A program made the translations under genes and the position numbers. A stretch of DNA of 64,000 nucleotides, taken from contig JAUSEG010000017.1 in assembly GCA_030650415.1 (NCBI GenBank), positions 16,885 through 80,884 of the forward strand. Reading direction: 5' to 3'. Below are positions 10,557-61,700 of this stretch, piece by piece (position 1 is the stretch's first letter; every line of letters starts with the position of its first letter). The DNA is from a bacterium. Its GTDB lineage: Bacteria; Patescibacteriota; Patescibacteriia; Patescibacteriales; GWC2-42-12. The notes under the pieces were generated by a model, which was not told the DNA's origin, made no database searches, and was given only the letters and a program-made list of their open reading frames with translations.

Positions 10557-10662
10557 TTATGCCCTCCTTCCAAAGGAGGGGTAGGCCTGCCCGCAACGCT
10601 TCGCTTGCGAGGCGGGCGGGGGAGGTTTAAACCCCCTTAATCCCCCTTTTGAAGGGGGATAA
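10557..10662. repeat. Cluster of GC-rich hairpin modules
   Basis: ccctccttccaaaggaggg, gcccgc..gcgggc, and atccccctt-ttga-aagggggat are the same module types seen at 26976, 44293, 45221, 50403 and 59334. Confidence 0.8.
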
Positions 10663-10665
10663 AAT

Positions 10666-11688: not shown

Positions 11689-11880
11689 GTCATTGCGGCC
11701 TCTGAGCCGCAATCCAGGAGTGAGCAGTAAAAATAAAAATATTATAATAAAAATTAATAGCAAGTAAAATGTTTAGAAGCGTTTTTTGATAACTCGTAGT
11801 TTGTGCGGTTTACTCCTGGATTCCGGCTTCGCCTGCCTGATGGCAGACTCTCCGCCTGCTGGCGGAGGCCGGAATGACAG
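11689..11880. repeat. GC-rich hairpin modules
   Basis: gtcattgcggcctctgagccgcaatccagga (11689..11719). ctcctggattccggcttcgcctgcc..ctccgcctgctggcggaggccggaatgacag (11813..11880). Confidence 0.8.
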
Positions 11881-14180: not shown

Positions 14181-14299
14181 AAATTTTCAATTTTCAATTT
14201 ATAATTTTCAAACAATTTTCAATGAATTAATTTCCAATTTAAAAATTGAAGAATTAAAACATTGTTTAAAAATTGAAAATTAGAAATTAGAAATTAATT
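14181..14299. repeat. AT-word palindromic element (family with 30598, 42991, 60927)
   Basis: aaattttcaattttcaattt..ttttcaaacaattttcaatgaatt ... aacattgtttaaaaattgaaaattagaaattagaaatt is an imperfect dyad directly after a + strand stop codon. Confidence 0.8.
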
Positions 14300-17979: not shown

Positions 17980-17999
17980 AATTAAAATATTTATATTTT

Positions 18000-18158
18000 G
18001 TCATTGCGGCCTCCGAGCCGCAATCCAGGAGAAGAAGCAGGAGTGAGAAGATAAGAATGAAGCTAATTAAAGAAAGAAAATTTTGTTTGGCGCAATTTAT
18101 TTAGTGATTTATAGTTCGTTCAACTTCCTCCTGGATTCCCGCCTGCGCGGGAATGACA
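18000..18158. repeat. GC-rich hairpin modules
   Basis: gtcattgcggcctccgagccgcaatccagga (18000..18030). tcctggattcccgcctgcgcgggaatgaca (18129..18158). Confidence 0.8.
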
Positions 18159-18231
18159 AGATAGAATTATCATAGCTTAAACCGGGCGATTTTTCAAGGA
18201 TTTGGCAAGGTTTGTCCGTTTTACGCCAAAT

Positions 18232-19102: not shown

Positions 19103-20389
19103 ATGGATAAGGTTGATTTACCCGGCCAAATCATCACTCCGAAGAAACGCCGTAAAAGTAAAGTTTTGGGCGTTGTTTTATTATGTCTGATAATACTCGC
19201 CGTTTCTTTTAATGGCGGCATGATTTTCGCGCAGAAAAATGAGTTTATTAAATCGGCGAGCCTTAAGGAAGCTAATTACGCTGGCGGGGTTTATAATAAG
19301 TATGTAACGGCGCCGGCCAACAAGCTAACGCAGGACGTGGATTTTAATTTGTTCTGGAATGTCTGGGACATGCTTAAAGAAAAATATGTTGATAGGGATA
19401 AATTAGACGATAAAAAAATGTTTTATGGGGCGCTCAAAGGCTTGGTTCAATCAACCGGCGATCCTTACACCGTTTATATGGAGCCGAAATTAGCTAAAGA
19501 ATTTTCTAATGATTTGGCCGGAACCTTTGAAGGCATTGGCGCGGAAATCGGCAAGAAGAATGAAATTATAACTATTATCGCGCCGCTCGCCGACATGCCG
19601 GCGGAAAAAGCCGGTTTAAAATCCGGTGATAAAATTTATGCGATTGACGGCCAATCAACAGCCGGTTTGGAAATTGATGAAGCGGTCAGTAAAATCCGCG
19701 GCGCCAAAGGAACAGAAGTCACTCTAACTATTTACAGAGAAGGCTTTGAAGCCACTAAAGATTTTAAGATTACCAGGGACGCCATAATAGTTAAGAGCAT
19801 CAGAACCGAAATGTGGGATGATAAAATTTTTGTCATTACCATAACTAATTTTAACGACGATACGTCGGATTTGTTTAAGCGGGCGGTGCAATCGGCCGTG
19901 GAGAAAAATCCCAAAGGCATAATTTTAGATTTAAGGAATAATCCGGGCGGTTATCTTGAAACCGCTATTGACGTGGCCAGCGAATGGATTGAAAAAGGCG
20001 TGGTTGTTACCGAGCAGTTTAGTCCGGAGAAAAAAAATGAATATTTAAATCGCGGCCGGGCGCGCTTAAAAGATTATCCGACAGTGGTTCTAGTCAATCA
20101 GGGTAGCGCTTCGGCTTCGGAAATCGTGACCGGCGCGTTAAAGGATTATAAGAAAGCCACGGTTGTCGGCAAGAAGACTTTTGGCAAGGGTTCGGTTCAA
20201 ACTTTAGAAGAGCTTCAGGATAGCTCCTCGGTAAAAATTACCGTGGCTAAGTGGCTTACTCCAGGCGGCTATAATATTAACGAGCAAGGCATTATGCCTG
20301 ATATAGAAGTTGATTTTACCGCGGATGATTATGAAAAAAGCAAAGATCCGCAGATGGCTAAGGCGATAGAAATATTAAATAAGAAATAG
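19103..20389 (+). CDS. Carboxyl-terminal processing protease (peptidase S41) with PDZ domain
   Basis: N-terminal TM helix, PDZ (PAEKAGLKSGDKIYAIDG), S41 core LDLRNNPGG...NQGSASASEI...GKKTFGKG. Confidence 0.9.
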   Translation: MDKVDLPGQIITPKKRRKSKVLGVVLLCLIILAVSFNGGMIFAQKNEFIKSASLKEANYAGGVYNKYVTAPANKLTQDVDFNLFWNVWDMLKEKYVDRDKLDDKKMFYGALKGLVQSTGDPYTVYMEPKLAKEFSNDLAGTFEGIGAEIGKKNEIITIIAPLADMPAEKAGLKSGDKIYAIDGQSTAGLEIDEAVSKIRGAKGTEVTLTIYREGFEATKDFKITRDAIIVKSIRTEMWDDKIFVITITNFNDDTSDLFKRAVQSAVEKNPKGIILDLRNNPGGYLETAIDVASEWIEKGVVVTEQFSPEKKNEYLNRGRARLKDYPTVVLVNQGSASASEIVTGALKDYKKATVVGKKTFGKGSVQTLEELQDSSSVKITVAKWLTPGGYNINEQGIMPDIEVDFTADDYEKSKDPQMAKAIEILNKK

Positions 20390-20395
20390 ATAATT

Positions 20396-20606
20396 GTCAT
20401 TGCGAGCGACCATCTTCCTTTTGTCATTCCGGCCTCCGCCAGCAGGCGGAGAGCCTGCTCCGGCAGGCGAAGCCGGAATCCAGAAATTTGTTCGTGGCAC
20501 TGAATTCTGGATTCTCATGGCTACGCCAGATCTCGCGTAGCGATGACCGCCTGCGCGGGAATGACAAAGAGGAGATTGCTTCGTCGCTGAAGCTCCTCGC
20601 AATGAC
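20396..20606. repeat. Cluster of about 6 GC-rich hairpin modules
   Basis: gtcattgcgagc.., gtcattccggcctccgccagcaggcggag.., ggctacgccagatctcgcgtagc (reverse complement of the 2993 module), ccgcctgcgcgggaatgaca, ..ctcctcgcaatgac. Confidence 0.85.
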
Positions 20607-20620
20607 AGAAATATTTTAAT

Positions 20621-26977: not shown

Positions 26978-27016
26978 CCCCCCTTCCCCCTTTTGAAGGG
27001 GGTCAATAAAGTAAAT

Positions 27017-30599: not shown

Positions 30600-30700
30600 A
30601 ATTTTCAATTATTAATGAATTAATTTTTAAATGTTTATTTATTTTTTGTTTGGAAATTAAAACATTGAGACATTGTTTAGAAATTGAAAATTAGAAATTT
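30598..30700. repeat. AT-word palindromic element (degenerate copy)
   Basis: aaattttcaattattaatgaattaattttt ... aacattgagacattgtttagaaattgaaaattagaaattt. Confidence 0.7.
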
Positions 30701-30758: not shown

Positions 30759-31910
30759 GTGGACAAGGCGGTTCTAAAAGCGATGTTACCGTATTTTTCC
30801 GATAAATACGGCAACGCTTCTTCGCTTCATGCTTTCGGCCAAATAGCCGCCAAGGCGGTTAATCAAGCGCGGGAGAATATCGCTAAATTATTAAATTGCG
30901 GGATCGAAGAAGTAATTTTTACTTCCGGCGCCACCGAAGCGGATAATTTGGCGGTTTTCGGCTTGGTCAACGCTTTAAGAAAAAATAACAATGATAAGCT
31001 TCATATTATAACTTCAGCGATCGAGCATCCGGCGGTGCTGGAACCGTTAAAAATATTAGCAGGTCAGGGAGTCGAAGTCACCTATTTGCCGGTTGGCAAG
31101 AGCGGCCTGGTTGATTTGGAAATTTTTAAAAAGTCCATCAAAGACAACACGGTTTTAGTTTCGATTATGTATGTTAACAGTGAAATCGGCATTATTGAGC
31201 CGATCAGGGAAATTGGTGAAGTCATTGAAAAAATTAATGCCGAGAGAGCAGGCCAAGGCGGTAAGAAAAGAATTTATTTTCATACTGATGCCGTTCAGGC
31301 CTTAAATTTTTTGGATTGCGACACCAAAAAACTTCATCTCGATCTTTTATCATTTTCCGGACATAAAATATATGGGCCTAAGGGAATAGGCGTTTTATTC
31401 GTTAAATCCGGCACACCGATTCAAGGTCTGCAATTGGGCGGCCACCACGAAAAAAATTTAAGAAGCGGCACCTTAAACGTTCCGGGCATCGTCGGCCTCG
31501 CTGAAGCCTTAAGAACTTGCTCACGGGACAGAGAAAAAAACAATAAGAAAATTTTAAAATTGAGAAATAACTTTGTCGCTGCGGTTAAAAAGCGAATAAA
31601 AAACGTGAGAGTAAATACCGATTTAAAAAAATCCACGCCGTCGCTGGCCAGTATTTCTTTTGTTGGCGCCGAGGGCGAATCGATCTTAATCGCTTTGGAT
31701 TTAAGCGGCGTGGCGGTTTCTACCGGCTCGGCTTGCGCTTCGGCGAGCCTAAAGGCCTCGCCGGTCTTACTCGCTATCGGTATAAAAGAAGAAACCTGCC
31801 ATAGCACCATAAGGTTCAGTTTCGGAAAAAATAATACTGAAGCTGAGGTTAAAAAAGTCTTAAAAATATTACCACCGATAATTGAGAGATTAAGGAAAAT
31901 GGCTCCCTAG
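30759..31910 (+). CDS. Second cysteine desulfurase (NifS-like); true start upstream and non-canonical
   Basis: The track starts at GTG 30759, but the conserved N-terminus IYLDHSATTP is encoded in frame at 30726..30758. That frame opens at 30705 and has no ATG/GTG/TTG; only ATT (30714) and ATA (30717) are available. Confidence 0.85.
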   Translation: MDKAVLKAMLPYFSDKYGNASSLHAFGQIAAKAVNQARENIAKLLNCGIEEVIFTSGATEADNLAVFGLVNALRKNNNDKLHIITSAIEHPAVLEPLKILAGQGVEVTYLPVGKSGLVDLEIFKKSIKDNTVLVSIMYVNSEIGIIEPIREIGEVIEKINAERAGQGGKKRIYFHTDAVQALNFLDCDTKKLHLDLLSFSGHKIYGPKGIGVLFVKSGTPIQGLQLGGHHEKNLRSGTLNVPGIVGLAEALRTCSRDREKNNKKILKLRNNFVAAVKKRIKNVRVNTDLKKSTPSLASISFVGAEGESILIALDLSGVAVSTGSACASASLKASPVLLAIGIKEETCHSTIRFSFGKNNTEAEVKKVLKILPPIIERLRKMAP

Positions 31911-31992
31911 CTTTTAATCAATTTGCAGTCAGTTTAATAAAAAACGCCTCCCTAGCTTTTAATCAATTTGCAGTCAGTTTAATAAAAAACGC
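31903..31992 (+). repeat. 45-bp tandem duplication spanning the nifS-like stop codon
   Basis: ctccctagcttttaatcaatttgcagtcagtttaataaaaaacgc occurs twice (31903..31947, 31948..31992). The third unit begins but runs into the terminator stem. Confidence 0.9.
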
Positions 31993-32024
31993 CTCCGTCA
32001 AAATTTGACGGAGGCGTTTTTTAT
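31984..32024. terminator. Bidirectional terminator hairpin
   Basis: aaaaaacgcctccgtcaaa-at-ttgacggaggcgtttttt is a perfect 13-bp stem with A/T runs on both sides, between convergent genes. Confidence 0.85.
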
Positions 32025-32025
32025 T

Positions 32026-39439: not shown

Positions 39440-39449
39440 ACTTTTATTT

Positions 39450-39583
39450 AAATTCTAAATTAAAAATCCTAAACTCTAAACAAATACAAAATTCTAATGT
39501 TCAAAATTCAAAACGAATAATTATTTTAGTAATTTGGATTTTGGTTATTAGAATTTGTTTAGGATTTAGATATTAGAGTTTAG
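39450..39583. repeat. AT-rich word-repeat element, uninterrupted homologue of 2966..3154
   Basis: aaattctaaattaaaaatcctaaactctaaacaaatacaaaattctaatg ... ttagaatttgtttaggatttagatattagagtttag. Confidence 0.8.
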
Positions 39584-41395: not shown

Positions 41396-41476
41396 GTCTC
41401 GCAACTCGTAACTCGTAACCCATAACTCAAAATGCGATATTAAAGAGTTACGAGCTATGAGATGTGAGTTGTGAGA
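41396..41476. repeat. Palindromic word-repeat element (ctcgtaac type; sibling at 53007..53111)
   Basis: gtctcgcaactcgtaactcgtaacccataactc ... gagttacgagctatgagatgtgagttgtgaga. Confidence 0.75.
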
Positions 41477-41936: not shown

Positions 41937-42986
41937 ATGTTTGATTTTTACATCATTAAAATTTTGCTTCTAACCGCCTCGGCTTTTATTTTTGCTATTC
42001 TTTGGACGCCGCTTTTAACCCATTATCTTTATAAATATAAAATGGGCAAGCAGATCAGGAATAACGGCAGTACGCCGGTTTATACAAAAATGCATGCTCA
42101 TAAGGGCGGTACGCCGACTATGGGCGGGATTTTAGTTTGGCTGACAGTTTTAATTTTTGCTCTGGTGTTTTATTATTTGGGTAAGTTTTTACCTTGGGAA
42201 ATTTTTAAACAGCTTAATTTTTTATCAAGAAGCCAGACCCTCTTGCCTTTGGGCGCTTTAATCGCCACGGCTTTAATCGGTTTGTTTGATGATTGGCTGG
42301 ATGTCAAGGGTAAAGGAATTTTGGGCGGCGGCGGTTTAAGGGTTAAGCATCGTTTGTTAATTTATACGGTAATTGCCGCTGTTGGCGCTTGGTGGTTTTA
42401 TTTTAAATTGGACTGGGATGTTTTCCATGTGCCATTTCTCGGCGATTGGCAATTGGGCTGGCCGTATATTTTAATTTTTATTTTTGTCTTGGTATCCACG
42501 GCTTTTTCGGTCAATGAGACTGATGGCCTGGACGGTTTGGCCGGCGGAGTGCTTTTGATTTGTTTTGCCTCTTTCGGCGTGATCGCTTTTTCCACCGGCA
42601 AATATGATCTAGCCACTTTCTGCGGCGTGATCGCCGGAGCGCTTTTAGCTTTTTTATGGTTTAATATAGCGCCGGCGCGTTTTATAATGGGTGATACCGG
42701 CGCCATGAGTTTAGGCATAACCTTGGGTGTTATTGCTATGTTAACTAACTCGGCGTTGATTCTACCGATTATCGGCCTGGTTTTTGTGATTGAATCAATC
42801 TCCGTGATTTTGCAACTTTCATCTAAAAAAATCAGAGGCAAGAAAATCTTTATTTCTTCGCCAATTCATCACCACTTTGAAGCTATGGGTTGGCCGGAAA
42901 CGAAAATTGTTATGCGTTTTTGGGTCATCGCCGGTATTAGCGCGGCCATCGGCCTGGTGATATTTTTGCTCGATAAGACGATGTAA
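41937..42986 (+). CDS. mraY: Phospho-N-acetylmuramoyl-pentapeptide transferase
   Basis: KGGTPTMGG, NETDGLDGLAGG, FMGDTGAM, HHHFE are MraY signatures. Confidence 0.95.
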   Translation: MFDFYIIKILLLTASAFIFAILWTPLLTHYLYKYKMGKQIRNNGSTPVYTKMHAHKGGTPTMGGILVWLTVLIFALVFYYLGKFLPWEIFKQLNFLSRSQTLLPLGALIATALIGLFDDWLDVKGKGILGGGGLRVKHRLLIYTVIAAVGAWWFYFKLDWDVFHVPFLGDWQLGWPYILIFIFVLVSTAFSVNETDGLDGLAGGVLLICFASFGVIAFSTGKYDLATFCGVIAGALLAFLWFNIAPARFIMGDTGAMSLGITLGVIAMLTNSALILPIIGLVFVIESISVILQLSSKKIRGKKIFISSPIHHHFEAMGWPETKIVMRFWVIAGISAAIGLVIFLLDKTM

Positions 42987-42990: not shown

Positions 42991-43077
42991 AAATTTTTAA
43001 TTTTCAATTCTCAATTTTCAATGAATGATCAATTCATTAATTTTCAATTGAAAATTGAGAATTGAAAATTAAAAATT
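42991..43077. repeat. AT-word palindromic element with perfect 31-bp arms
   Basis: aatttttaattttcaattctcaattttcaat ... attgaaaattgagaattgaaaattaaaaatt, starting 5 nt after the mraY stop. Confidence 0.9.
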
Positions 43078-43085
43078 ATTTTGTT

Positions 43086-44225
43086 ATGTCTTCACTTTTT
43101 GCCTGGTTCCATAAAATAATATCTTCAAGCAACAAGCATGATGAAGCCGATAAAGGCCTGCTCATTATTGTCGGAGCAATTTTGGTTTTCGGTCTTATCA
43201 TGCTGGCCAGCGCTTCTTCAATTATTTCTTATAACACCTACCATCAGGATAGCTATTTTATTTTGAAACATCAGCTTTTTGGTTTAATTTTAGGTCTCGG
43301 TTTTTTTTGGTTTTTTTCCAAAGTTGATTATCAAATTTGGCGCAAATACGCTTTATGGATGCTAGTCGCTTCGATCGGCTTGTTGCTGCTGGTTTTTATT
43401 CCCGGGCTCGCCGGCACCTGGGGGACGTCCAAAAGCTGGATAAATGTTTTTGGTTTTTCTTTGCAGCCGTCCGAATTCGTAAAAATTACCTTCTTGCTTT
43501 ATTTAGCCGCTTGGCTGGAAGGCAGGAAAAAACAGCTAGCCGAAGTGTCGCGCGGCATCGGGCCGTTTATGGTTATTTTAGGAGCGATCGCGCTTTTAAT
43601 GATATTGCAGCCGGATATGGGCACTCTAACAATTATCGCTTTGGCGTCGTTCATCGTTTATTTTATCGGCGGCGGCAGCGTAAAACATTTGGTGGCTTTA
43701 GTTTTATTAGGGCTAACGGCTTTAGTTATTATGGTGAATATTTATCCTTATCAGGCTAACCGATTTAAGTGCATGATGGATCCGTCTTTTTCTAAAAAGG
43801 AAATTTGCTATCAGATCAATCAATCTTTAATCGCGGTTGGTTCGGGTGGTTGGTTCGGCCGGGGTTTAGGCGCCTCCAGGCAAAAGTTTTCGTATTTGCC
43901 TCAAGCGCAGAACGACGCGATTTTTCCGATTATCAGCGAGGAGATCGGCTTTATTTTTTCCGTGGGTTTAATTTTATTATATTTAGCCCTGTTTCTTAAG
44001 GGCGTGGCCATCGCTAAAAAAGCGCCGGATGATTTCGGCAAGATTTTAGCTGTCGGCATAGTCAGCTGGATTACTTTGCAGGCCTTGATAAATATCGGCG
44101 GTATGGTTAATATTATGCCCATGACTGGCGTGCCTTTGCCGATGATTAGTTATGGCGGTTCAGCCATGATAGCGGCTCTGGCCTCTATCGGGATATTAGC
44201 TAATATTAGCAAGCAGGGGAAATAG
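43086..44225 (+). CDS. ftsW: SEDS-family peptidoglycan polymerase (FtsW by position between mraY and murG)
   Basis: The ATG at 43086 is preferred over the track's TTG at 43062, which lies inside the palindrome. LQPSEFVK, RQKFSYLPQAQNDAIF, PLPMISYGGS motifs. Confidence 0.85.
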   Translation: MSSLFAWFHKIISSSNKHDEADKGLLIIVGAILVFGLIMLASASSIISYNTYHQDSYFILKHQLFGLILGLGFFWFFSKVDYQIWRKYALWMLVASIGLLLLVFIPGLAGTWGTSKSWINVFGFSLQPSEFVKITFLLYLAAWLEGRKKQLAEVSRGIGPFMVILGAIALLMILQPDMGTLTIIALASFIVYFIGGGSVKHLVALVLLGLTALVIMVNIYPYQANRFKCMMDPSFSKKEICYQINQSLIAVGSGGWFGRGLGASRQKFSYLPQAQNDAIFPIISEEIGFIFSVGLILLYLALFLKGVAIAKKAPDDFGKILAVGIVSWITLQALINIGGMVNIMPMTGVPLPMISYGGSAMIAALASIGILANISKQGK

Positions 44226-44270
44226 AATTATGAATAATGAATCATGGATTATGATCAATAAGAACTAATT

Positions 44271-44361
44271 GTTATTGCGGACGCTGTTATTGCCCCCTTT
44301 AACAAAGGGGGTTAGGGGGATTTATTTTTTTGTCATGCCGGACTTGATCCGGCATCCAGGA
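44271..44361. repeat. GC-rich hairpin modules
   Basis: gcccccttta-acaa-agggggttaggggga and tgtcatgccggacttgatccggcatccagga. Confidence 0.8.
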
Positions 44362-44396: not shown

Positions 44397-44792
44397 ATGG
44401 TTAGAAACGTTGCCGTAATAATTCTCTACGAAAAAAATAAAAAAATTTTACTTCAGCATAGAGCCGAAAATGCTAAAAGATTACCAGGATATTGGGGATT
44501 CTTTGGCGGCGGCGTAGAAGCGGGCGAAACGCCTGAGCAGGCGGTGCGCCGAGAAACCAGAGAAGAATTAAATTATGAGTTGGAGAATCCAAAGCTGGTT
44601 ATGACGCAGAAATTTACTTATAAAGGCGATGAAAATACCCAGTATGTGTTTATGGAAGAGTACGATAAAAATAAAAAATTGACGCTGGGCGAAGGGCAAG
44701 GCATGAAGTGGTATGACCTCGCGGAATTAGGCGAATTAAAGATTATAGATCATGACGCGAAAGTTTTAAAATATATTAAGGGCAAATATTAA
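44397..44792 (+). CDS. NUDIX hydrolase
   Basis: Nudix box [23 protein letters not shown]. Confidence 0.85.
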
Positions 44793-44804
44793 AGAATAAA
44801 TTAT

Positions 44805-45113
44805 ATGGCTAAAAAAATTAAATCAATTCATCCGGGTGAAATATTAAATGAAGAATTTTTAGTTTCTTTTAAGATCAGTCAATATCGTTTAGCTAAAGAT
44901 ATCGGGGTCGCTCCGCGCCGAATTAATGAAATCGTGCACGGTTCACGCGCCATCTCTGCGGACACCGCTCTCCGTTTAGGCAAATATTTTAATATTTCTC
45001 CTCAGTTTTGGCTTAACCTGCAATCGCGTTTTGACTTAGAAACAGAAGCGGAAGAGCTGGTTTACACGTTAAAAAACGAAGTAAAAATATTTAATAATTG
45101 CGTAACAGCTTAA
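44805..45113 (+). CDS. higA: HigA-family antitoxin (XRE HTH), no HigB partner seen
   Basis: IHPGEILNEEFL...SQYRLAKDIGVAPRRINEIVHGSRAISADTALRLGKYFNISPQFWLNLQ is the canonical HigA sequence. Confidence 0.85.
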   Translation: MAKKIKSIHPGEILNEEFLVSFKISQYRLAKDIGVAPRRINEIVHGSRAISADTALRLGKYFNISPQFWLNLQSRFDLETEAEELVYTLKNEVKIFNNCVTA

Positions 45114-45126: not shown

Positions 45127-46380
45127 ATGAATTTTGAAAAAAATTATAAAATACTTTTTACCGGCGGAGGCACAGGCGGATCAGTGGCGCCGCTCTTGGC
45201 TGTGGCCGAGGAGTTGAATAATCCCCCTAACCCCCTTTATCAAGGGGGAAAAAATAAAACCCCCTCTAGCTCCCCCTTGTCAGGGGGAGAATACGAATTT
45301 CTCTGGCTGGGCACGAAGTTCGGGCCGGAGCGAGAGATGGTTGCTTCGGCGAGCTCCCCTCGGCCTGAGCTCGGGACGAAGGCAGCACAGGGGGCCGGAA
45401 TAAAATTTAGAGCGATTAACGGCGGAAAATGGCGACGGTATTTTTCTTTTAAAAATTTGCTGGATGTCGTAAAAATTAAATTAGGTTTCTGGCAAGCCTT
45501 TTTTATAATGTTAAAATGGCGGCCCGATCTGGTGATAAGCGCGGGCAGTTTCGTGAGCGTGCCGGTAATTTGGGCGGCTTGGTTTTTGCGAGCGCCGATT
45601 TTAATTCATCAGCAGGACGCGATGCCCGGGCTGGCTAATAAGTTGATGGCGCCGCTGGCGCGCGCGGTGACGGTTACTTTTGAAAAATCTTTGGCTGATT
45701 ATGGGAAAAAAGCGGTTTGGACCGGCAATCCGGTAAGAAATCAATTAAAAATTACAAATTACAAATTACGAATTAAAAATTTTAAAATTCAAGATGGTTT
45801 GCCAGTTTTATTGGTGTTAGGCGGGGGTACCGGAGCGATGGCAATTAATAAATTAGTGGAAGAGAGTTTAAGTGAATTGACCAAATTTTGCCAAATTATA
45901 CATGTTACAGGCAAGAATAAAAATTCCAGTGTCATTCTGGAGCCGAAGGCGATAGAATCCCATGGCTTAGAGTTGAAACAAGGAGATCCTATCGCTTCGC
46001 TGGCGCTACGCTCCAGGATGACAAACTATTTCGCTTTTGAATTTTTAGACGCGGAACGAATCGCTGGGGCGTTTAAACTGGCTGATGTAGTGGTAACGCG
46101 CGCCGGCCTGGGGTTTTTAACCGAATTATCATTTTTAAGTAAACCAGCCATAATTATTCCACTACCCGATTCACACCAGGAAGCCAACGCCGAGATGTTT
46201 AAAGAAGCGGCCATTGTTTTAGAGCAAAAAGATTTAAACGCTGAAAAATTTGTCGGCGAAATAAAAAATTTAATTGGCGATAAAGAATTGCAAAAGGAGT
46301 TAGGCGAAAAAATCGGGCGAGTGATGAAGCCGGGAGCTAATGAGGCGATGGTGAAGATAATTTTGGAGTTATTGAAATAA
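45127..46380 (+). CDS. murG: UDP-N-acetylglucosamine--N-acetylmuramyl-(pentapeptide) pyrophosphoryl-undecaprenol GlcNAc transferase, expanded by in-frame repeat modules
   Basis: FTGGGTGGSVAPLLAVAEEL, IHQQDAMPG, LVLGGGTGA, VVTRAGLGFLTEL. 417 aa versus ~355 typical. Confidence 0.9.
   Translation: MNFEKNYKILFTGGGTGGSVAPLLAVAEELNNPPNPLYQGGKNKTPSSSPLSGGEYEFLWLGTKFGPEREMVASASSPRPELGTKAAQGAGIKFRAINGGKWRRYFSFKNLLDVVKIKLGFWQAFFIMLKWRPDLVISAGSFVSVPVIWAAWFLRAPILIHQQDAMPGLANKLMAPLARAVTVTFEKSLADYGKKAVWTGNPVRNQLKITNYKLRIKNFKIQDGLPVLLVLGGGTGAMAINKLVEESLSELTKFCQIIHVTGKNKNSSVILEPKAIESHGLELKQGDPIASLALRSRMTNYFAFEFLDAERIAGAFKLADVVVTRAGLGFLTELSFLSKPAIIIPLPDSHQEANAEMFKEAAIVLEQKDLNAEKFVGEIKNLIGDKELQKELGEKIGRVMKPGANEAMVKIILELLK
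45221..45288. repeat. Two C5/G5 hairpin modules inside murG coding sequence
   Basis: atccccctaaccccctttatcaaggggga is near-identical to intergenic 59334..59365. Second module aaccccctctagctcccccttgtcaggggga. Translated PPNPLYQGGKNKTPSSSPLSGG. Confidence 0.85.
45344..45381. repeat. Imperfect GC hairpin inside murG
   Basis: cttcggcgagctc...gagctcgggacgaag, translated SASSPRPELGTK. Absent from the E. coli MurG alignment as I recall it. Confidence 0.55.
45931..46022. repeat. ~92-nt long-hairpin module inside murG
   Basis: gtcattctggagccgaaggcgatagaatcc...ggatcctatcgcttcgctggcgctacgctccaggatgac, translated VILEPKAIESHGLELKQGDPIASLALRSRMT. Confidence 0.8.
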
Positions 46381-46579: not shown

Positions 46580-48028
46580 ATGGATAAAAATATTTTTGGC
46601 AATAAAATAAAATGGATTTGGACCATGAGAAAGTTAAATACGCCCTTATCGGTTTCCTCTTATCCCAAGGGCATAAAAATGGGTCAGGACTCTTTTAAGT
46701 ACCCTCTGCGTTTAAGCGCGACTTGGTATGACTACGGCGACATTTATTTTGACGAGGAGGAGATGAATTTAATCCGTGAATTTTTGAAATATAAAATAAA
46801 AAATGACCCGGCTTATCCTAATAAAATCGCCGAACAAATTTTTTCTTTGTCAAGAAGGATTGACCGATATGATGCCGGAGAGGTTGATAACAAAAATCTC
46901 AAACAGCTCATCGCTTTATTTAAAAACAGCGAAGAGTTATTTTTAAAAATGATTGGCTTTATGAGCTATCGCGGTTCGGTGCAAATGAGCGAGGTTTTAA
47001 GAGAGCAAATAGAGATGGTTTTAAAATACAAGCTTGCCGAAAGCAAGCCATTGAATTTATTCCAAATTTATTTAGAACGGCTTTCTTATCCTCTTTATAA
47101 AAGCGTGGTAGCCGAAGAGAAAAAATTTGTTTTGCGATTGGCAAAAGGCTTTAAAAGAATCTCTGAACAGGGGCGGGAGAAAAGAATAAATTTATATTTG
47201 GAAAAATTTGAGTGGCTCTCTTACCATTGGTTCGTTGGAATATCACCGAGTAAAACGCAAATAAAAGATAAGCTTAACAGGTTATCTTTAAATGTTGATC
47301 GGGAATTAACAAAAATTAAAATTGAACAGAAGAAAAACGAGGGCGAGGTGAAAAAAATTGTTAAAGAACTGAAATTTAGTTCAGCGGAAAAACTTTTGCT
47401 TAAACAATACAGAAGCTGGCTGTTTTTACGGACTTATGTAAAAGACAACCTTAATAAAATGGCTTTTAAGTCATTGCCGATCCTCTATGCCATTGCCGAG
47501 CAAAAACAAATTGAGCCTAAATTAATTCCTTTTTTGACATCAGAAGAAATTTATAATATTGAAAGTCTCGCAGCCAAGGAAATTAATAAATTAATCAATG
47601 AACGAAAAAATGGTTTTAGCGCCGGGATTATTGAAAATAAATTTAGTTTCCGAGCATTTAATAAAATGGCGGCACTCGAGAAAAACATAGATGAAACTAA
47701 AATTAAAGGATCAATCGCTTTTAAGGGTATAGTTCAAGGCATTGTAAAAGTTATTATGTCGCCCAAAGAACAAGGTGAACTTAAAAAAGGTGAAATTTTA
47801 GTTACTTCTATGACCACTCCGGATTTACTGCCGGCTATGGAACGAGCGATCGCTTTTGTTACTGACGAGGGTGGTATTACTTGCCATGCCGCAATTGTAG
47901 CGCGAGAAATGAAAAAGCCTTGCATAATTGGAACTAAGACAGCAACAAAAATTTTAAGAAATGGAGATCTTGTGGAAGTTGACGCGATAAATGGTTATGT
48001 AAATATAATTAAACGAAATGATGAATAA
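46580..48028 (+). CDS. PEP-utilizing enzyme mobile-domain protein (PpsA-related)
   Basis: The C-terminal GEILVTSMTTPDLLPAMERAIAFVTDEGGITCHAAIVAREMKKPCIIG is the phosphohistidine swivel domain. The N-terminal ~380 aa is unassigned. Confidence 0.75.
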   Translation: MDKNIFGNKIKWIWTMRKLNTPLSVSSYPKGIKMGQDSFKYPLRLSATWYDYGDIYFDEEEMNLIREFLKYKIKNDPAYPNKIAEQIFSLSRRIDRYDAGEVDNKNLKQLIALFKNSEELFLKMIGFMSYRGSVQMSEVLREQIEMVLKYKLAESKPLNLFQIYLERLSYPLYKSVVAEEKKFVLRLAKGFKRISEQGREKRINLYLEKFEWLSYHWFVGISPSKTQIKDKLNRLSLNVDRELTKIKIEQKKNEGEVKKIVKELKFSSAEKLLLKQYRSWLFLRTYVKDNLNKMAFKSLPILYAIAEQKQIEPKLIPFLTSEEIYNIESLAAKEINKLINERKNGFSAGIIENKFSFRAFNKMAALEKNIDETKIKGSIAFKGIVQGIVKVIMSPKEQGELKKGEILVTSMTTPDLLPAMERAIAFVTDEGGITCHAAIVAREMKKPCIIGTKTATKILRNGDLVEVDAINGYVNIIKRNDE

Positions 48029-48033: not shown

Positions 48034-48561
48034 ATGAACCTAAAATCAAAAATTAGGGAAATACCGAATTGGCCAAAGCCGGGGATTAATTTTAAAGATA
48101 TTACCACGTTGTTAGAAGATAAAGCGGCTTTTAAAGAGGCGGTGGATAAGCTAGCCGCTCCATTTTTAGGACAAAAAATTGATAAAGTGGTGGGTATTGA
48201 CGCGCGCGGTTTTCTTTTGGCCGCTCCGGTCGCTTATAAATTAAATACCGGCTTGGCGGTTGTCCGAAAAAAGGGTAAACTGCCATTTCGTTCTATAAAG
48301 CAAGATTATACATTAGAATATGCCAGCAACACGGTTGAGATGCATGAAGACGCTATAAAGCCGGGCGAGAATGTGGTCTTGATTGACGACCTTTGCGCGA
48401 CCGGCGGCACGGCTCTAGCGGCCTGCGATTTAATAAAAAGGCTGGGCGGAAAGATTATCGGCGTGAGTTTTTTAATTGATTTGCCGTTTTTAGGCGGATC
48501 CAAAAAAATTAAAGAGCGCGGGATTGAAGTGCGAAGTTTAGTTGAATATGATAAGGAATAA
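48034..48561 (+). CDS. apt: Adenine phosphoribosyltransferase
   Basis: IPNWPKPGINFKDITTLL, PRPP motif VVLIDDLCATGGTA. Confidence 0.93.
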   Translation: MNLKSKIREIPNWPKPGINFKDITTLLEDKAAFKEAVDKLAAPFLGQKIDKVVGIDARGFLLAAPVAYKLNTGLAVVRKKGKLPFRSIKQDYTLEYASNTVEMHEDAIKPGENVVLIDDLCATGGTALAACDLIKRLGGKIIGVSFLIDLPFLGGSKKIKERGIEVRSLVEYDKE

Positions 48562-48572
48562 ATTATTTGTTT

Positions 48573-48778
48573 GTCATTGCGGGTTTGACCTCGTCATCGC
48601 TACGCGAGATCTGGCGAAGCCACGACAATCCATGAGGTAGCCGTAAGTAAGTGAATTTAATATAATATTTACAAAATAATCGTTCGTGACATTTAATTCT
48701 GGATTCCGGCTCGTAGGCCGGAATGACAGATAAGGAGATTGCTTCGCCACCCTGATTACAAGGGTGGCTCGCAATGAC
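48573..48778. repeat. Cluster of GC-rich hairpin modules
   Basis: gtcattgcgggtttgacc.., tcatcgctacgcgagatctggcgaagccacga (same module as 2993..3024), ctggattccggctcgtaggccggaatgaca, ..ggtggctcgcaatgac. Confidence 0.85.
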
Positions 48779-48789
48779 ATAATAAAAAT

Positions 48790-49575
48790 ATGAATAAAAT
48801 TAAAATCGCCATTATCGGGGGGAGCGGGCTTGATGACCCGGGCATTTTAAAAAATGCCAAAGCAGTTAATATCTCTACGCCTTTCGGCGCTTCGGCCTCG
48901 CCGTTAATTTGCGGGCGGATTGGCGACATTGAGGTAGTGGTGTTGGCTCGCCATGGCCAGAATCATACTTTTATGCCGACCAAGGTGCCGTATCGGGCTA
49001 ACGTTTGGGCTTTAAAAGAAGCCGGCTGCACGCATATTATCGCCACCACGGCCTGCGGTTCTTTAAAGGAAGAAATTAAACCGCGCGATTTAATATTTTT
49101 AGATCAGTTTATTGATTTTACAAAACATCGCAATCTAACATTTTTTGAAGATAAGGTGGTGCATACGGCCATGGCTGATCCATTTTGTCCGAGCTTAAGA
49201 GAAATTTTAATTAGAACCGCCAAAGAATTAAAATTATCTTGTCATGAAAAAGGAACTATTATAACTATCGAAGGCCCGAGATTTTCCACGCGCGCCGAAA
49301 GCCGTTATTTTAAAAGCATGAACGCGGACGTAATCAATATGTCAACTGTGCCGGAAGTAATTTTGGCGCGCGAGCTGGGTATTTGCTATGCCAGCGTGGC
49401 CATGGCTACCGATTATGACGCTTGGCGGGAAGGCGAAGAAGCGGTTACCTGGAAAATGGTTATGCAGGTTATGAAAGACAACGCCAATAATGTCGTGAAT
49501 ATTTTATTAAAGGCGATTCCGAAAATCGCCGCTGAATTGGCCGATGAAGAGTGCGAGCATTGCGGAGTGAAATAA
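48790..49575 (+). CDS. mtnP: S-methyl-5'-thioadenosine phosphorylase (MTAP-type purine nucleoside phosphorylase)
   Basis: IAIIGGSGL, LARHGQNHTFMPTKVPYRANVWALKEAG, VINMSTVPE. Confidence 0.85.
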   Translation: MNKIKIAIIGGSGLDDPGILKNAKAVNISTPFGASASPLICGRIGDIEVVVLARHGQNHTFMPTKVPYRANVWALKEAGCTHIIATTACGSLKEEIKPRDLIFLDQFIDFTKHRNLTFFEDKVVHTAMADPFCPSLREILIRTAKELKLSCHEKGTIITIEGPRFSTRAESRYFKSMNADVINMSTVPEVILARELGICYASVAMATDYDAWREGEEAVTWKMVMQVMKDNANNVVNILLKAIPKIAAELADEECEHCGVK

Positions 49576-49577
49576 AT

Positions 49578-51026
49578 ATGGATTTATCTAAAATCAAAAA
49601 AATTTATATGATCGGGATTAAGGGCGTGGGCATGACTATGCTCGCTCAGTATTTGCGCGGACAGGGAATGGAGATTTCCGGTTCGGATGGACCGGAAAAG
49701 TATATGACCGACGCGGTTCTGGAAGGCTGTGGCATCAAAGTAATTGAGAAGTTTGAGGTTAATAATCTGCCTAAGGACGCTGATTTGATAATTTATTCCA
49801 CCGCCTATTCTCCGGAAACGAATCTCGAGGTGGCCGCGGCTTTAAAAGGAAGAATCAAAGTTATGACTTATGCCGAGGCCTTAGGGGAAGTGTTTAACCA
49901 AAAATACGGCATCGCCGTGGTCGGTTCGCACGGTAAAACCACGATTACGGCCTGGCTGGGATATGTCCTAAATAAGTCCGGACTTGAGCCGAGCGTGATG
50001 GTTGGCGCCAGCGTACCACAGTTTAACGGCTGTTCGCTCGCGAGCAAATCGGATTATTTAATTATTGAAGCGGATGAGTACCAGAATAAATTGCAGTATT
50101 ACCGGCCCAGAGCCGTACTTTTAAATAATATTGATTACGATCATCCCGATTTTTTTCTCACCCGGGCTGATTATGAAAACGCTTACATAGAATTTATTAA
50201 AAAGATTCCGGCCAAGGGTTTTTTAGTGGCGAATTTCGACGATCCCTTAATTAGAAAAATTGCGCAAGTTAATTGCAAGGGCAAAGTCATAACTTACGCT
50301 ATAGACGAAGCGGCGGATTATGTCGCTTATGATATTAAAACCGATAATGGCAAGCAGTATTTTAAAGTTAAGCTTGGAGTGGAAGATGAGTTGGAAGATG
50401 AAAAATCCCCCCCACCCCCCTTTGTCAAGGGGGGAGATAAATTGGGCGACTTTTCAATTCAACTTTCCGGCCGACACAATATACTGAACGCTTTGGCCGT
50501 TATCGTAACTTGCGTTGAATTAAATGTTGAGTTATTTAAAATAAGAAAATATTTGGAAGAATTTTCCGGCACGGCCAGAAGAATGGAATTGAAAGGTGAG
50601 TTCAGGGGCGCCGCTATAATTGACGACTACGCGCATCATCCCACGGAAATTAAAGCCACAGTTGAAGCGGTACGGCAGAAATATGGCCGAAGGAAATTAA
50701 TTGTGGCATTTCACCCCCATACTTTTAGCCGCACTCGGGCGCTTTTCGACGACTTTGTAAAAAGTTTTGCCGGAGCCGACGAATTAATCGTTTTGGACAT
50801 CTACGGTTCGGCTCGCGAAAAACCGGGCGGAGCGCATAGCCGAGAGCTGGTTGATAAAATTGTCGCAAGAAATAAAGAATTAGAATCCAAGCAAACCGTA
50901 AAATATATTCCGACTCTGAAAGAATGCGAAGAATATTTAAGGGAACATGTCGAGAGAAATGACGTAGTAGTATTAATGGGCGCCGGTGATATATTCAGAG
51001 TGGGGGAAGATTTGGTAAAAAAGTAA
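49578..51026 (+). CDS. murC: UDP-N-acetylmuramate--L-alanine ligase, with one in-frame repeat module
   Basis: The ATG at 49578 (MDLSKIKKIYMIGIKGVGM). GSHGKTTITAW P-loop, DDYAHHPTEI. Confidence 0.92.
   Translation: MDLSKIKKIYMIGIKGVGMTMLAQYLRGQGMEISGSDGPEKYMTDAVLEGCGIKVIEKFEVNNLPKDADLIIYSTAYSPETNLEVAAALKGRIKVMTYAEALGEVFNQKYGIAVVGSHGKTTITAWLGYVLNKSGLEPSVMVGASVPQFNGCSLASKSDYLIIEADEYQNKLQYYRPRAVLLNNIDYDHPDFFLTRADYENAYIEFIKKIPAKGFLVANFDDPLIRKIAQVNCKGKVITYAIDEAADYVAYDIKTDNGKQYFKVKLGVEDELEDEKSPPPPFVKGGDKLGDFSIQLSGRHNILNALAVIVTCVELNVELFKIRKYLEEFSGTARRMELKGEFRGAAIIDDYAHHPTEIKATVEAVRQKYGRRKLIVAFHPHTFSRTRALFDDFVKSFAGADELIVLDIYGSAREKPGGAHSRELVDKIVARNKELESKQTVKYIPTLKECEEYLREHVERNDVVVLMGAGDIFRVGEDLVKK
50403..50434. 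repeat. C5/G5 hairpin module inside murC coding sequence
   Basis: aaatcccccccacccccctttgtcaagggggga, translated KSPPPPFVKGG. Confidence 0.8.
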
Positions 51027-51036
51027 AACTTTTATT

Positions 51037-51197
51037 GTCATTGCGAGCGATCCGCCTACTGGCGGAGAGCGCGGCAATCTCACGAACTCCATAACAATCA
51101 TAATACAATAGTGGCGATATTTAGCAAAATTTAGATATATGTGAGATTGCTTCGTCGTCCCCCACCAAACCTTGGTGGGGGACTCCTCGCAACGACA
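51037..51197. repeat. Cluster of GC-rich hairpin modules
   Basis: gtcattgcgagcgatccgcctactggcggag.., gagattgcttcgtcgtcccccaccaaaccttggtgggggactcctcgcaacgac. Confidence 0.85.
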
Positions 51198-51210
51198 AGA
51201 TAAAAAATAA

Positions 51211-53006: not shown

Positions 53007-53111
53007 AATCTCGTATCTCGTAACTCGCAACCCGCAGCTCAAACTCGCAGCCCATAACTTTTTTAGCTTTATATTTTGAGTTGTGAGCTATGAGCTATGG
53101 GTTGTGAGATT
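53007..53111. repeat. Palindromic word-repeat element (ctcgtaac type)
   Basis: aatctcgtatctcgtaactcgcaacccgcagctcaaactcgcagcccataac ... tgagttgtgagctatgagctatgggttgtgagatt. Confidence 0.75.
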
Positions 53112-59201: not shown

Positions 59202-59262
59202 TTAGCACTCCCTTGACCCCGCATAACTCGCTACGCTCGTAAGCGGGGCAGGCAAGAGTGCT
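59202..59262. promoter_or_regulatory. Degenerate second CIRCE with its spacer expanded by a GC hairpin
   Basis: TTAGCACTC (59202..59210) ... AGAGTGCT (59255..59262) are separated by 44 nt containing the hairpin ccccgc...gcgggg (59217..59248). Confidence 0.45.
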
Positions 59263-59277: not shown

Positions 59278-59304
59278 TTAGCACTCTTGACACGGGAGTG
59301 CTAA
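59278..59304. promoter_or_regulatory. CIRCE operator (HrcA binding site) overlapping a sigma70-type promoter
   Basis: TTAGCACTC-ttgacacgg-GAGTGCTAA is a perfect consensus. TTGACA lies inside the spacer and TATAGA 16 nt downstream. 67 nt upstream of hrcA. Confidence 0.9.
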
Positions 59305-59370
59305 TTAGTATAGAATGATAATATAGGAAATTAAATCCCCCTAACCCCCTTTGTTAAAGGGGGCAATTAT

Positions 59371-60057
59371 ATGGACAAACGGAAAGAATTAATTCTAAAA
59401 ACCATTATTAAAGAATACATAAAAACCGCCGCGCCCATCGGATCGGAAGGTTTGGTTGAGAAATACAATTTGGACATTTCCTCGGCCACGGTCAGGAATG
59501 AAATGGCGGATTTAGAGGAAGCCGGCTTTATAGCGCAACCGCATACTTCGGCTGGCCGCATTCCAACCGAGAAAGCTTATAATTTCTACTTAGAAAATTT
59601 AAGTGAAAAGAAATTAAGCGATAGCGAGGAGAAAATTTTTAAAGAAGTTTTGATAAAAAAAGAAGAAATAAATTTTAAGCAAGCGGCAAAGCTCATGGCC
59701 AAGATTTCCGGCAACGCGATTTTTTGGGCCTTTCACAAACATAATTTATACTATACCGGAGTATCTAATTTATTGCATCAGCCGGAATTTTCCCAAGCCG
59801 ATATGGTTTATGATATTTCAGGGTTGATTGATCGTCTGGACGAAATTATTAGTCAAATTTTTAACGACTTGAAATTCGGACCGCAAATTATGCTTGGGTC
59901 AAAAAATCCGTTCGGCGTTTATTGCAGTGTGGTGATCAGTAAATACCGGTTAGGCGACGATATCGGTTTAATCGGCGTTCTTGGTCCGATGCGGATGAAT
60001 TATGAAAAGAATTTAGCCTTAGTGAAATTTATAAATGATATATTAAATGAAAAATAA
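59371..60057 (+). CDS. hrcA: Heat-inducible transcription repressor HrcA (short form, 228 aa)
   Basis: KRKELILKTIIKEYIKTAAPIGSEGLVEKYNLDISSATVRNEMADLEEAGFIAQPHTSAGRIPTEKAY is the canonical HrcA wHTH. Confidence 0.85.
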   Translation: MDKRKELILKTIIKEYIKTAAPIGSEGLVEKYNLDISSATVRNEMADLEEAGFIAQPHTSAGRIPTEKAYNFYLENLSEKKLSDSEEKIFKEVLIKKEEINFKQAAKLMAKISGNAIFWAFHKHNLYYTGVSNLLHQPEFSQADMVYDISGLIDRLDEIISQIFNDLKFGPQIMLGSKNPFGVYCSVVISKYRLGDDIGLIGVLGPMRMNYEKNLALVKFINDILNEK

Positions 60058-60928
60058 TAATATGGGGGAAGAAAAAGAAGTTAATAATTTCGGTTGTAAA
60101 TACGCCATTTTTGGAGTAAGCGCGCTTATTTTTAATGAGGAAGGTAAGTTGTTCTTGGCTAAATCACCAAAATGGAAAAATTTATGGATGGTTCCGGGAG
60201 GCAAGGTTGAATTTGGCGAGAGTATGAGCGAAGCCTTAGAGCGCGAGGTTAAAGAAGAAACTGGTCTGTCCATAAAAGATATAAAATATTTGAACACTGT
60301 AGAATTAAACAGAACCGAAGAAAGACCAAATATGCACATGGTAGTTATGAGACATGTGACAAAGACTAGCGATAGCGAAGTGAAATTGAATGATGAACAC
60401 AGTAAATTTGATTGGCGCGCGCCCGAAGATTGGCTTAAAGAGAAAGATATACATCCCAGTATAAAGGAGACGATTGAATATTATTTAAATGAGTTTTTGT
60501 CAAAAAATGATCATGAAGGCCTGTATAAGCGCGCTTTAGCCGATTACCAGAATTTATTAAAGCAGACGGCCAAGGAAAAAATGGAATTTGCCATGTTCGC
60601 CAATGAAATAATGCTAAGAGAAATTTTGCCGGTTTATGACCATTTAAAAATGGCCATAGAGCATCATAATGAAGAGTCTAAAGATGAATGGTTGGCCGGC
60701 GTTAAACATGTAGTTAAACAATTTAAAGACGTTTTGGAAAAAATTGGCGTAACGGAAATTAAAACCGCGGGCGAAAAATTCGACCATAATTCAATGGAAG
60801 CGATAAAGAATGAAGAGACGGCTGATGAAAAATTGGACGGCCAAGTGGCTAAACAAATGAAAGCCGGGTACAAGTTGAATGGTAAAGTTATAGAAGCGGC
60901 TAAAGTAGTAGTTTACAAAGTGAAGTAA
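60047..60928 (+). CDS. grpE: Nudix hydrolase domain fused to nucleotide exchange factor GrpE
   Basis: Perfect Nudix box GKVEFGESMSEALEREVKEETGL at residues ~52-74. Residues ~150-293 are GrpE (YKRALADYQNLLKQ..LPVYDHLKMAIEH..GVKHVVKQFKDVLEKIGVTEI..GEKFDHNSMEAI..GYKLNGKVIEAAKVVV). Confidence 0.85.
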   Translation: MKNNNMGEEKEVNNFGCKYAIFGVSALIFNEEGKLFLAKSPKWKNLWMVPGGKVEFGESMSEALEREVKEETGLSIKDIKYLNTVELNRTEERPNMHMVVMRHVTKTSDSEVKLNDEHSKFDWRAPEDWLKEKDIHPSIKETIEYYLNEFLSKNDHEGLYKRALADYQNLLKQTAKEKMEFAMFANEIMLREILPVYDHLKMAIEHHNEESKDEWLAGVKHVVKQFKDVLEKIGVTEIKTAGEKFDHNSMEAIKNEETADEKLDGQVAKQMKAGYKLNGKVIEAAKVVVYKVK

Positions 60929-61046
60929 TTTTTAATTTTCAATTCTCAATTTTCAAACAATTTTCAATGACTTAATTTTCAATTAATCATTGAGAAATTG
61001 AAAATTAGAACATTGTTTGAAAATTAGAAATTAGAAATTAAAAATT
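60927..61046. repeat. AT-word palindromic element
   Basis: aatttttaattttcaattctcaattttcaaacaattttcaatgac ... gaacattgtttgaaaattagaaattagaaattaaaaatt. The left arm is nearly identical to 42991. Confidence 0.85.
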
Positions 61047-61585: not shown

Positions 61586-61700
61586 TTGGATTCTCGCCAT
61601 CGCGGGAATGACAAAAGAAAAATAAATTAAAATAATTAATAAATAATTAAATTTGTCCTTGCCACGCGCCCCTGGATTGCGGGTCAAGCCCGCAATGACA
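61586..61700. repeat. GC-rich hairpin modules
   Basis: ttggattctcgccatcgcgggaatgaca and cccctggattgcgggtcaagcccgcaatgaca. Confidence 0.8.

Follow-up and report, generated by a model that had tools for sequence, protein, structure and literature searches.

The murG gene in a 64,000-nucleotide (nt) stretch of contig JAUSEG010000017.1 from a member of the Patescibacteriota (positions 16,885 to 80,884; hereafter the window) encodes a protein of 417 amino acids, compared with 352–358 in insert-free orthologues, raising the question of how an essential cell-wall enzyme came by its additional residues. A first-pass annotation of the window had noticed this lengthening and proposed that hairpin repeats from the intergenic spacers had entered both murG and murC in frame. 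The lengthening is borne out, and our analyses make it likely that the two genes have been colonized by dispersed repeats that are small, non-coding and hairpin-forming and belong to several families, which also fill the intergenic spacers.

Repeat-derived segments in MurG and MurC

We identified murG (45127-46380, + strand) by its N- and C-terminal Pfam GT28 domains, by sequence matches to MurG entries in the PDB and by fold. The product of this open reading frame (ORF) is the longest of 81 MurG orthologues (the window plus 80 genomic loci, designated by L numbers), and its excess over a basal length of ~352 residues, as in L012 and L018, consists of five repeat-derived in-frame segments at four sites: S1 (residues 32-55), S2 (73-89), the linker S3 (~205-222) and S4 (266-300). 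Length variation in MurG was confined to these sites and the termini, first among 29 and then 120 homologues, and also among the 81 genomic orthologues. S1 holds two copies of a C5/G5 module of ~30 nt, built from two C-runs and one G-run: S1a (AATCCCCCTAACCCCCTTTATCAAGGGGGA; 45220..45249, + strand), translated NPPNPLYQGG, and S1b (AAACCCCCTCTAGCTCCCCCTTGTCAGGGGGAG; 45257..45290, + strand), translated KTPSSSPLSGG. S2 is a 45-nt GC-rich quasi-palindrome (CTTCG.CGAGCTC...GAGCTCG..CGAAG; 45344..45388, + strand, boundaries +/- ~3 nt), translated within VASASSPRPELGTKAAQ. S3, in the interdomain linker, is a period-7 array, (AATTACA)x5.6 (45743..45781, + strand; Tandem Repeats Finder (TRF) score 57), translated KITNYKLRIKNFK, and S4 is a long hairpin of 94 nt whose termini, TGTCATTCTGGAGC...GCTCCAGGATGACA, are inverted (45930..46023, + strand), translated VILEPKAIESHGLELKQGDPIASLALRSRMT. 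The murG insertions named in the first-pass annotation were all present, and the sequences it quoted are translated in frame, as it gave them, within the 417-residue ORF, but it had overlooked the fifth segment, the heptamer array at S3.

The C5/G5 module links these genes to the spacers. Its core motif, CCCCCTTN5AGGGGG, gave 12 strand-hits in the window compared with 0.04 expected, and copies of the module were found at four intergenic and three genic positions. The third genic copy, AAATCCCCCCCACCCCCCTTTGTCAAGGGGGGAG (50403..50436, + strand), lies in murC and is translated KSPPPPFVKGG. Intergenic copies occupy the 5' leader of hrcA (59332..59367, + strand; gene identity confirmed), where the ATG follows 7 nt after the end of the G-run; the spacer between ftsW and a NUDIX gene (44289..44321, - strand); 10630..10660 (+ strand), where ORF 10666 starts 8 nt after the G-run; and a position directly after an FTR1 permease gene (26978..27002, + strand). 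The first two are identical over ~36 nt and mutually inverted. A direct-repeat family, D7, joined the copies at 45220, 50405, 59334 and 10630; within it, the murG copy shared 26 of 29 positions (90%) with the hrcA-leader copy at 59334, and was 83% identical to the murC copy and 79% identical to the copy at 10630. The resemblance of the murG module to intergenic copies, above all the one upstream of hrcA, had been read by eye and survives statistical treatment. The S1b hairpin has an 8-bp stem (z = -2.95 in a shuffle test); across the short C5/G5 hairpins z ranged only from -1.5 to -3 because the shuffles retain the C and G runs. A role as an intrinsic terminator was rejected, as neither orientation has a T-run after the hairpin. 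Searching the window against Rfam 15 at the gathering threshold returned three tRNAs only, and at permissive thresholds all matches over the modules fell far below threshold.

The other segments also have counterparts in the spacers. S4 folds at -21.3 kcal/mol (z = -4.2; 0 of 200 shuffles as good), and its 5' terminus, TGTCATTSYRG, occurs eight times in the window compared with 0.13 expected, seven of the eight being ends of large intergenic composite hairpins; its assignment to a hairpin type found between genes is thus upheld. S3 is the top-scoring period-7 array in the window, and the eight others scoring >=39 in TRF are all intergenic. For S2, the window contains no full second copy; its 5' motif, TTGCTTCGNCR, a pattern picked post hoc, recurs in three intergenic composites.

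Hairpins of this kind are concentrated outside genes, as the first-pass annotation's view of intergenic elements spilling into ORFs would predict. GC-rich perfect hairpins occurred in the window at 2.43/kb outside genes and 0.42/kb inside, and block-shuffled window sequence yielded 2-11 per 64 kb; over the 81 loci (1.23 Mb) the densities were 1.06/kb and 0.26/kb, respectively. Among gene families at these loci, MurG had the highest density (0.56/kb, compared with 0.03-0.37 for its neighbours); the values were 0.28 for MurC, 0.19 for FtsW, 0.13 for MraY and 0.03 for an ABC transporter. When the 23 in-gene hairpins of the window were read by hand, three in murG and one in murC could be assigned to a repeat family; the other 19 were left unassigned, and four of these 19 fall close to a start that is doubtful or in an ORF on the minus strand that is probably spurious. 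Those four, three in the 'ORF' at 20375-20602 and one at 11850, are intergenic composites and were discounted as in-gene cases. A hairpin at 31741-31763 within ORF 30759-31910 was likewise rejected as an insertion: it presumably encodes a conserved NifS/IscS-like active-site loop (…GSACASASLKASPVL…).

The segments sit where the protein appears able to accommodate them. An AlphaFold model of the window MurG had a mean predicted local distance difference test (pLDDT) score of 87 and a MurG fold (top PDB matches 3s2u, 1nlm, 7d1i and 1f0k). Its pLDDT dipped solely in residue blocks 31-50, 81-90, 211-220 and 261-300, which correspond to the inserts and fall between regular secondary-structure elements, so that in the model the insert sites are low-confidence loops; S1a, for example, falls in the loop that connects helix 17-31 to strand 56-62. 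The window protein keeps all 28 columns found invariant among the 120 homologues. Outside the four sites, murG compared with that of L082 gave a ratio of nonsynonymous to synonymous substitution rates (dN/dS) of 0.094 with dS = 1.45, a sequence comparison that points to strong purifying selection on the rest of the gene.

murC (49551-51026, + strand; true start probably the ATG at 49578) was recognized by the Pfam domains of Mur ligases (N-terminal, middle and C-terminal) and by PDB MurC matches. Its module was absent from the closest MurC orthologues (L001, L015, L012, L018 and L009), which, together with the D7 match, substantiates the claim that murC too carries a C5/G5 insert. The same MurC loop holds other repeat inserts in L004, L016, L022 and L036. 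Against the solved Acinetobacter baumannii MurC (6cau), the insert region appears as a 17-residue gap at a β-hairpin turn. The placement of the inserts in loops or linkers, as given in the first-pass annotation, agrees with the pLDDT dips in MurG and with this gap in MurC.

Recurrence of inserts among orthologues

Comparison with orthologues shows that these segments are not ancestral. In nucleotide alignments, S2 was a clean 45-nt gap in both L082, the closest relative, and L081, and S4 was missing from L082, leaving a gap of ~81 nt. More distant relatives also lacked S1: S1a was absent from L010, L012, L015, L018 and L022. L082 carries a module at the S1b position, in the opposite orientation, and L010 has only the left part of S2 in common. 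L081, which is more distant than L082, has S4 at the same position with a frame-preserving 3-nt indel inside it. We considered and rejected RNA-level excision of S4: the hairpin, at 92-94 nt, is not a multiple of three, and the insertion relative to L082 measures ~81 nt. Given this size mismatch and the 3-nt indel relative to L081, read-through translation is the simpler account, and the inserts would accordingly form part of the protein in vivo. Insert-spanning tryptic peptides can be predicted, for example those covering NNPPNPLYQGGK and AIESHGLELK.

Across the 81 orthologues, MurG inserts of >=4 amino acids clustered at the same four sites, and insert-free orthologues were found for every site. 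In the 80 other orthologues these sites gain and lose repeats of differing families, in differing frames and in both orientations. Fitch parsimony on presence or absence, over a tree of 292 core columns obtained by neighbour joining, required at least 16, 7, 9 and 9 changes at S1, S2, S3 and S4, respectively. At S1 the window, L001 and L082 translate the module as NPPNPLYQGG; it is read as IPLTPFxKGG, one base shifted, in L016, L019 and L081, and antisense, as PLCIKGGRGD, in L017 and L019. That one DNA module is translated in two sense frames and antisense at one site argues for a DNA-level element rather than a conserved peptide. In L001 and L016, a different hairpin is nested within the C5/G5 module.

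Heptamer arrays at the MurG sites of orthologues are translated ITNYELRI, LATRNSQ, IPNPKSQ, FSIFNFQ or RMSDVGC, and S3 in particular holds heptamer families other than that of the window, such as LATRNSQ, IPNPKSQ and FSIFNFQ. Members of the S4 family are genic in the window, L081, L022, L042 and L044 and intergenic in L079, where the hairpin is complete. A full ~95-nt antisense copy occupies the S3 linker of L044 murG (10554-10650), and half-copies lie at S4 of L042 murG and in the murC loop of L022, the latter matching the 3' arm of the window S4 at 36 of 39 positions by hand count. S4 itself accepts other elements: in L019 murG (10694-10756) it contains a perfect palindrome with a 15-bp stem, translated GDPISKSEIGSP, and in L023 it carries TCCGCCAGCTGGCGGA, which is also found in an intergenic position near 3050 of the window.

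The C5/G5 module in other genomes and the origin of the segments

An exact-pattern scan of metagenome contigs (ATCCCCCTAACCCCCTTTN{3,4}AAGGGGG) recovered the same 25 specified bases in at least 120 contigs (L084-L203), with GC contents of 0.31-0.61 among the matches listed. Two of these contigs look as if they come from outside the candidate phyla radiation: L107, whose TypA is 93% identical to that of Desulfobacterales genomes, and L103, which encodes ClpA and topoisomerase VI subunit B. Among the matches listed, 107 of 126 module copies lay outside ORFs; the stem and the 5' C-run were conserved, the loop varied, and the flanks were unrelated, conservation outside the module being limited to AA at its 5' edge and (A)A at its 3' edge. 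Genic copies were in frame in a cysteinyl-tRNA synthetase (in the loop after DFALWK), in a glycosyltransferase identified by weak, sub-threshold GT2-type family matches, in a membrane protein that gave weak TPR-like matches, and in two large, apparently secreted proteins. A reverse-transcriptase-like ORF in L092 (167-745) ends in a C5/G5 module. Inverted doublets of the module were present in L087 and L101.

The position of the module relative to start codons may point to a function. An ORF started 5-16 nt after the G-run in 24 of 134 copies (~18%), ~4.5 times the density at 20-60 nt. The G-runs at this Shine-Dalgarno distance include the hrcA-leader copy (59345-59373) and that at 10642-10668 in the window, as well as copies in L005, L009, L104, L108, L114, L154, L185, L189, L199 and others; in related contigs, copies also lie upstream of dnaK and hsp20. 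Such a G-run may act as a hairpin-sequestered Shine-Dalgarno sequence, possibly as a thermosensor.

Returning to murG and murC, the reading that we favour is repeated colonization by the families described above: the C5/G5 module, hairpins ending in TGTCATT...AATGACA, period-7 arrays and GC-rich quasi-palindromes. As DNA, copies would arise again and again in any frame and in both orientations, through a trans-acting enzyme that recognizes hairpins or through hairpin-mediated template switching or gene conversion. Purifying selection would spare in coding DNA only those copies that are multiples of three, stop-free and placed in permissive surface loops. In MurG the outcome would be four recurrent permissive sites holding ~65 extra residues, presumably neutral, around an unchanged catalytic core. 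The first-pass annotation had stated outright that selection retains only in-frame, loop-located copies. Our tests are consistent with such a filter, but target choice could contribute to the pattern: module flanks (AAAT/module/AA) and empty S1 sites such as GAACTAAAAAAT/GAA, the slash marking the junction, suggest a preference for A-rich targets, which would alone bias insertion towards Lys-, Asn- and Glu-rich surface loops.

Several observations weigh against this reading. S1a is identical at 39 of 39 nt in the nucleotide alignment of the window and L082, despite dS = 1.45 for the rest of the gene, and the module sequence is the same across phyla; together these suggest that the module is not neutral junk and reflects constraint, homogenization or very recent or frequent re-insertion. 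Comparing filled with empty sites revealed no target-site duplication at S2 or S4. No recurrent protein family was found within 1.5 kb of the module, the best being present at 4 of 120 loci, all of which are genome fragments only. When each orthologue insert was compared by blastn with its own ±10 kb, scores were mostly no better than those of controls, with clear matches only for L039 S3 (63 nt at 95%), L019 and L016; this test is weak because the elements are short and ±10 kb contains too few spacers. Finally, the GAGCTC-centred hairpin of S2 was no better in energy than its shuffles (z = -0.75), so that, of its original description as an inserted repeat, the insertion stands on the clean gap in two orthologues, whereas membership of a repeat family is weak.

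A rival reading is that the modules are functional cis-elements, such as Shine-Dalgarno-sequestering hairpins, protein-binding sites, or pausing or mRNA-stability signals, with the copies in murG and murC retained for that function. The S1a identity between the window and L082, the 25 bases kept constant from GC-poor to GC-rich contigs, one of Desulfobacterales type included, the conservation of stem and 5' C-run around a variable loop, and the excess of copies just upstream of ORF starts, that of hrcA among them, fit such a role, which would also be compatible with mobility. As an explanation of the inserts we nonetheless judge it unlikely, because close relatives show a patchy pattern of presence and absence, the same protein sites are taken up by unrelated repeat families, genic copies occur in both orientations, no Rfam family matched the window or the modules, and ~80% of intergenic copies lie away from Shine-Dalgarno distance.

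Improbable as a general account is a local, non-mobile origin, in which replication slippage generated the heptamer arrays and template switching the quasi-palindromes, the S2 hairpin and perhaps others. S3 and S2 themselves may have arisen in this way: the right half of S2 resembles an inverted copy of the left half, which is all that L010 has, and in P0038/L008 the S3 peptide LATRNSQT is tandemly expanded four-fold. The failure to find target-site duplications at S2 and S4, or a transposase among the neighbours of the module, is in keeping with it. Local events leave unexplained, however, why unrelated loci and unrelated genomes share C5/G5 modules that are near-identical, and why copies of the S4 family occur in different genes and genomes.

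That the segments are ancestral linkers under protein-level selection, or that murG is a pseudogene or an assembly artefact, is hardly credible: like disordered linkers, the inserts have a high content of Pro, Gly and Ser, and the sequence is from a metagenome-assembled genome, but the orthologue alignments already contradict an ancestral origin (the closest orthologues lack segments, and the same DNA appears in more than one frame and in both orientations), the five inserts leave the ORF intact, with low dN/dS and its invariant residues kept, and equivalent inserts recur in many independently assembled genomes.

Within the preferred account of colonization by dispersed repeats, the C5/G5 module may be of wider interest. 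We propose tentatively that a ~33-nt unit, AAATCCCCCTAACCCCCTTT-NNN-AAAGGGGGAA, is an undescribed miniature element present across phyla, either spread horizontally or recognized by widely conserved machinery, which would supply a sequestered Shine-Dalgarno sequence to genes including hrcA and would at times be absorbed in frame into essential proteins. Repetitive extragenic palindromic (REP)-associated tyrosine transposases (RAYTs) are usually single-copy, and no RAYT-like neighbour was seen within 1.5 kb of the module on 120 contigs, all of them genome fragments.

Genomic surroundings and comparison with known repeats

The window (GC ~40%) comes from a lineage whose MurG homologues carry the database labels Patescibacteria, Parcubacteria or Candidatus Falkowbacteria. 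By ORFs and Pfam searches, it contains a cluster of cell-division and cell-wall genes: mraY (41937-42986), ftsW (43062-44225), the NUDIX gene (44397-44792), a helix–turn–helix (HTH) gene (44805-45113), murG, an ORF with a phosphoenolpyruvate (PEP)-utilising mobile domain (46580-48028), a gene that we take from ORF reading and synteny to be apt (48034-48561), one that ORF reading alone leads us to regard as MTAP-like (48790-49575), and murC. The 482-residue ORF at 46580-48028, between murG and apt, has its PEP-utilising mobile domain at the C terminus only; L082 lacks this ORF at the syntenic position, apt following murG directly. Upstream of murG, L082 has a HigB-like toxin gene preceding a 102-residue HTH (HigA-like) gene (3629-4237); at 44397-45113 of the window a NUDIX hydrolase gene replaces the toxin and the HTH gene is still present.

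The hrcA-grpE-hsp20-dnaK cluster includes a single 293-residue ORF (60047-60928) that joins an N-terminal NUDIX domain to GrpE. Upstream of hrcA is a perfect controlling inverted repeat of chaperone expression (CIRCE) operator (TTAGCACTC-N9-GAGTGCTAA; region 59202-59261 and 59278-59304). Directly before it stands a second CIRCE-like pair of half-sites, separated by ~44 nt containing a CCCCGC...GCGGGG hairpin, an arrangement that resembles an operator whose spacer has received a repeat.

Nearly all spacers of the window contain AT-rich inverted repeats with period-7 arrays as arms (AATTTTC, TAAATTC, CTCGTAA and others), for example at 2965-2993, 14182-14297, 30677-30699, 39449-39513, 41398-41476, 42992-43077, 44225-44254, 53008-53099 and 60927-61046. 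Three heptamers make 21 nt, so translated arrays give the 7-residue periodic peptides of many MurG linkers. Spacers also hold nested composite hairpins of 150-220 nt with termini of the TGTCATTGCG...CGCAATGACA type, which enclose smaller hairpin modules; large ones lie at 11688-11880, 17999-18160, 20395-20612, 48572-48782, 51036-51200 and 61587-61700, and they produce spurious ORFs such as that on the minus strand at 20375-20602. Just after the ORF ending at 31910, a 45-nt unit is repeated 2.2 times at 96% identity (31896-32025) and overlaps a perfect 22-bp palindrome (AATAAAAAACGCCTCCGTCAAA / TTTGACGGAGGCGTTTTTTATT).

The closest precedent for in-frame repeats of this kind is the Rickettsia palindromic elements (RPEs), palindromic repeats found in frame in protein genes (Ogata et al. 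2000, as summarised in PMC10969869), which that summary describes as ~100-150 bp long with a conserved peptide per family. The analogy lies in palindromic dispersed repeats of a small-genome bacterium that are both intergenic and in frame in housekeeping genes, at fold-compatible positions. Unlike RPEs, the modules here measure 27-45 nt (9-15 amino acids), S4 alone reaching 94 nt; they encode no conserved peptide and are translated in two frames and antisense; several unrelated families stack at the same loops and nest in each other; and dozens of genomes show the recurrent hot-spots, one module being identical across phyla. The host is also different, a member of the Patescibacteria.

REP/REPIN elements, which are mobilised by RAYTs (Bertels and Rainey 2011, PMC3116915), resemble the C5/G5 module in being imperfect, GC-rich palindromes of 20-40 nt, overwhelmingly extragenic in location and in many cases arranged in composite arrays, and the inverted doublets in L087 and L101 recall REPINs. 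REPs, in contrast, are essentially excluded from coding DNA, carry a 5' tetranucleotide in place of the conserved unpaired 5' C-run (AAATCCCCCTAA) of the module, and form species-specific families. Bacterial MITEs (miniature transposable elements bearing inverted repeats) with intragenic in-frame copies include ERIC, BOX and Anabaena MITEs (PMC10969869). The repeats described here share with MITEs a non-autonomous nature and the ability to form translational fusions with host ORFs, and the S4 family has terminal inverted repeats, which the C5/G5 module does not; S2 and S4 differ from MITEs in showing no evident target-site duplication, and the C5/G5 module is much smaller than MITEs usually are.

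Small dispersed repeats of cyanobacteria, which Elhai et al. reportedly described in 2008 as hairpins of ~21-27 nt that insert into other repeats and occasionally into genes, are similarly tiny, nested and modular, belong to other sequence families and have hosts in another phylum. We know of no description of recurrent in-frame hot-spots in one essential enzyme for them. Full-text literature searches turned up no account of repeats in frame within genes of Patescibacteria or the candidate phyla radiation, nor of the module sequence.

The candidate phyla radiation is regarded as streamlined, with genomes of ~1 Mb, and here a reduced-genome lineage tolerates hairpin repeats in essential peptidoglycan enzymes. 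If the colonization reading is right, the concept of 'selfish DNA in protein-coding genes' drawn from Rickettsia would extend to a second, unrelated reduced-genome group. The set of 81 orthologues provides a natural map of insertion tolerance, with four sites in MurG and one main loop in MurC, that may be useful for protein engineering and for reading length variation in metagenome proteins. Recurrent peptides in metagenome-assembled genomes, such as PPNPLYQGG, ITNYELRI, LATRNSQ and VILEPKAIES, would be explained as translated repeats, which matters for homology searches and domain annotation. The cross-phyla identity of the C5/G5 module and its frequent Shine-Dalgarno position suggest a mobile or regulatory element that is as yet uncharacterised; should it prove mobile, few known mobile DNA units would be smaller, and in Falkowbacteria-like genomes it would be one of several families that repeatedly remodel the same four loops of MurG.

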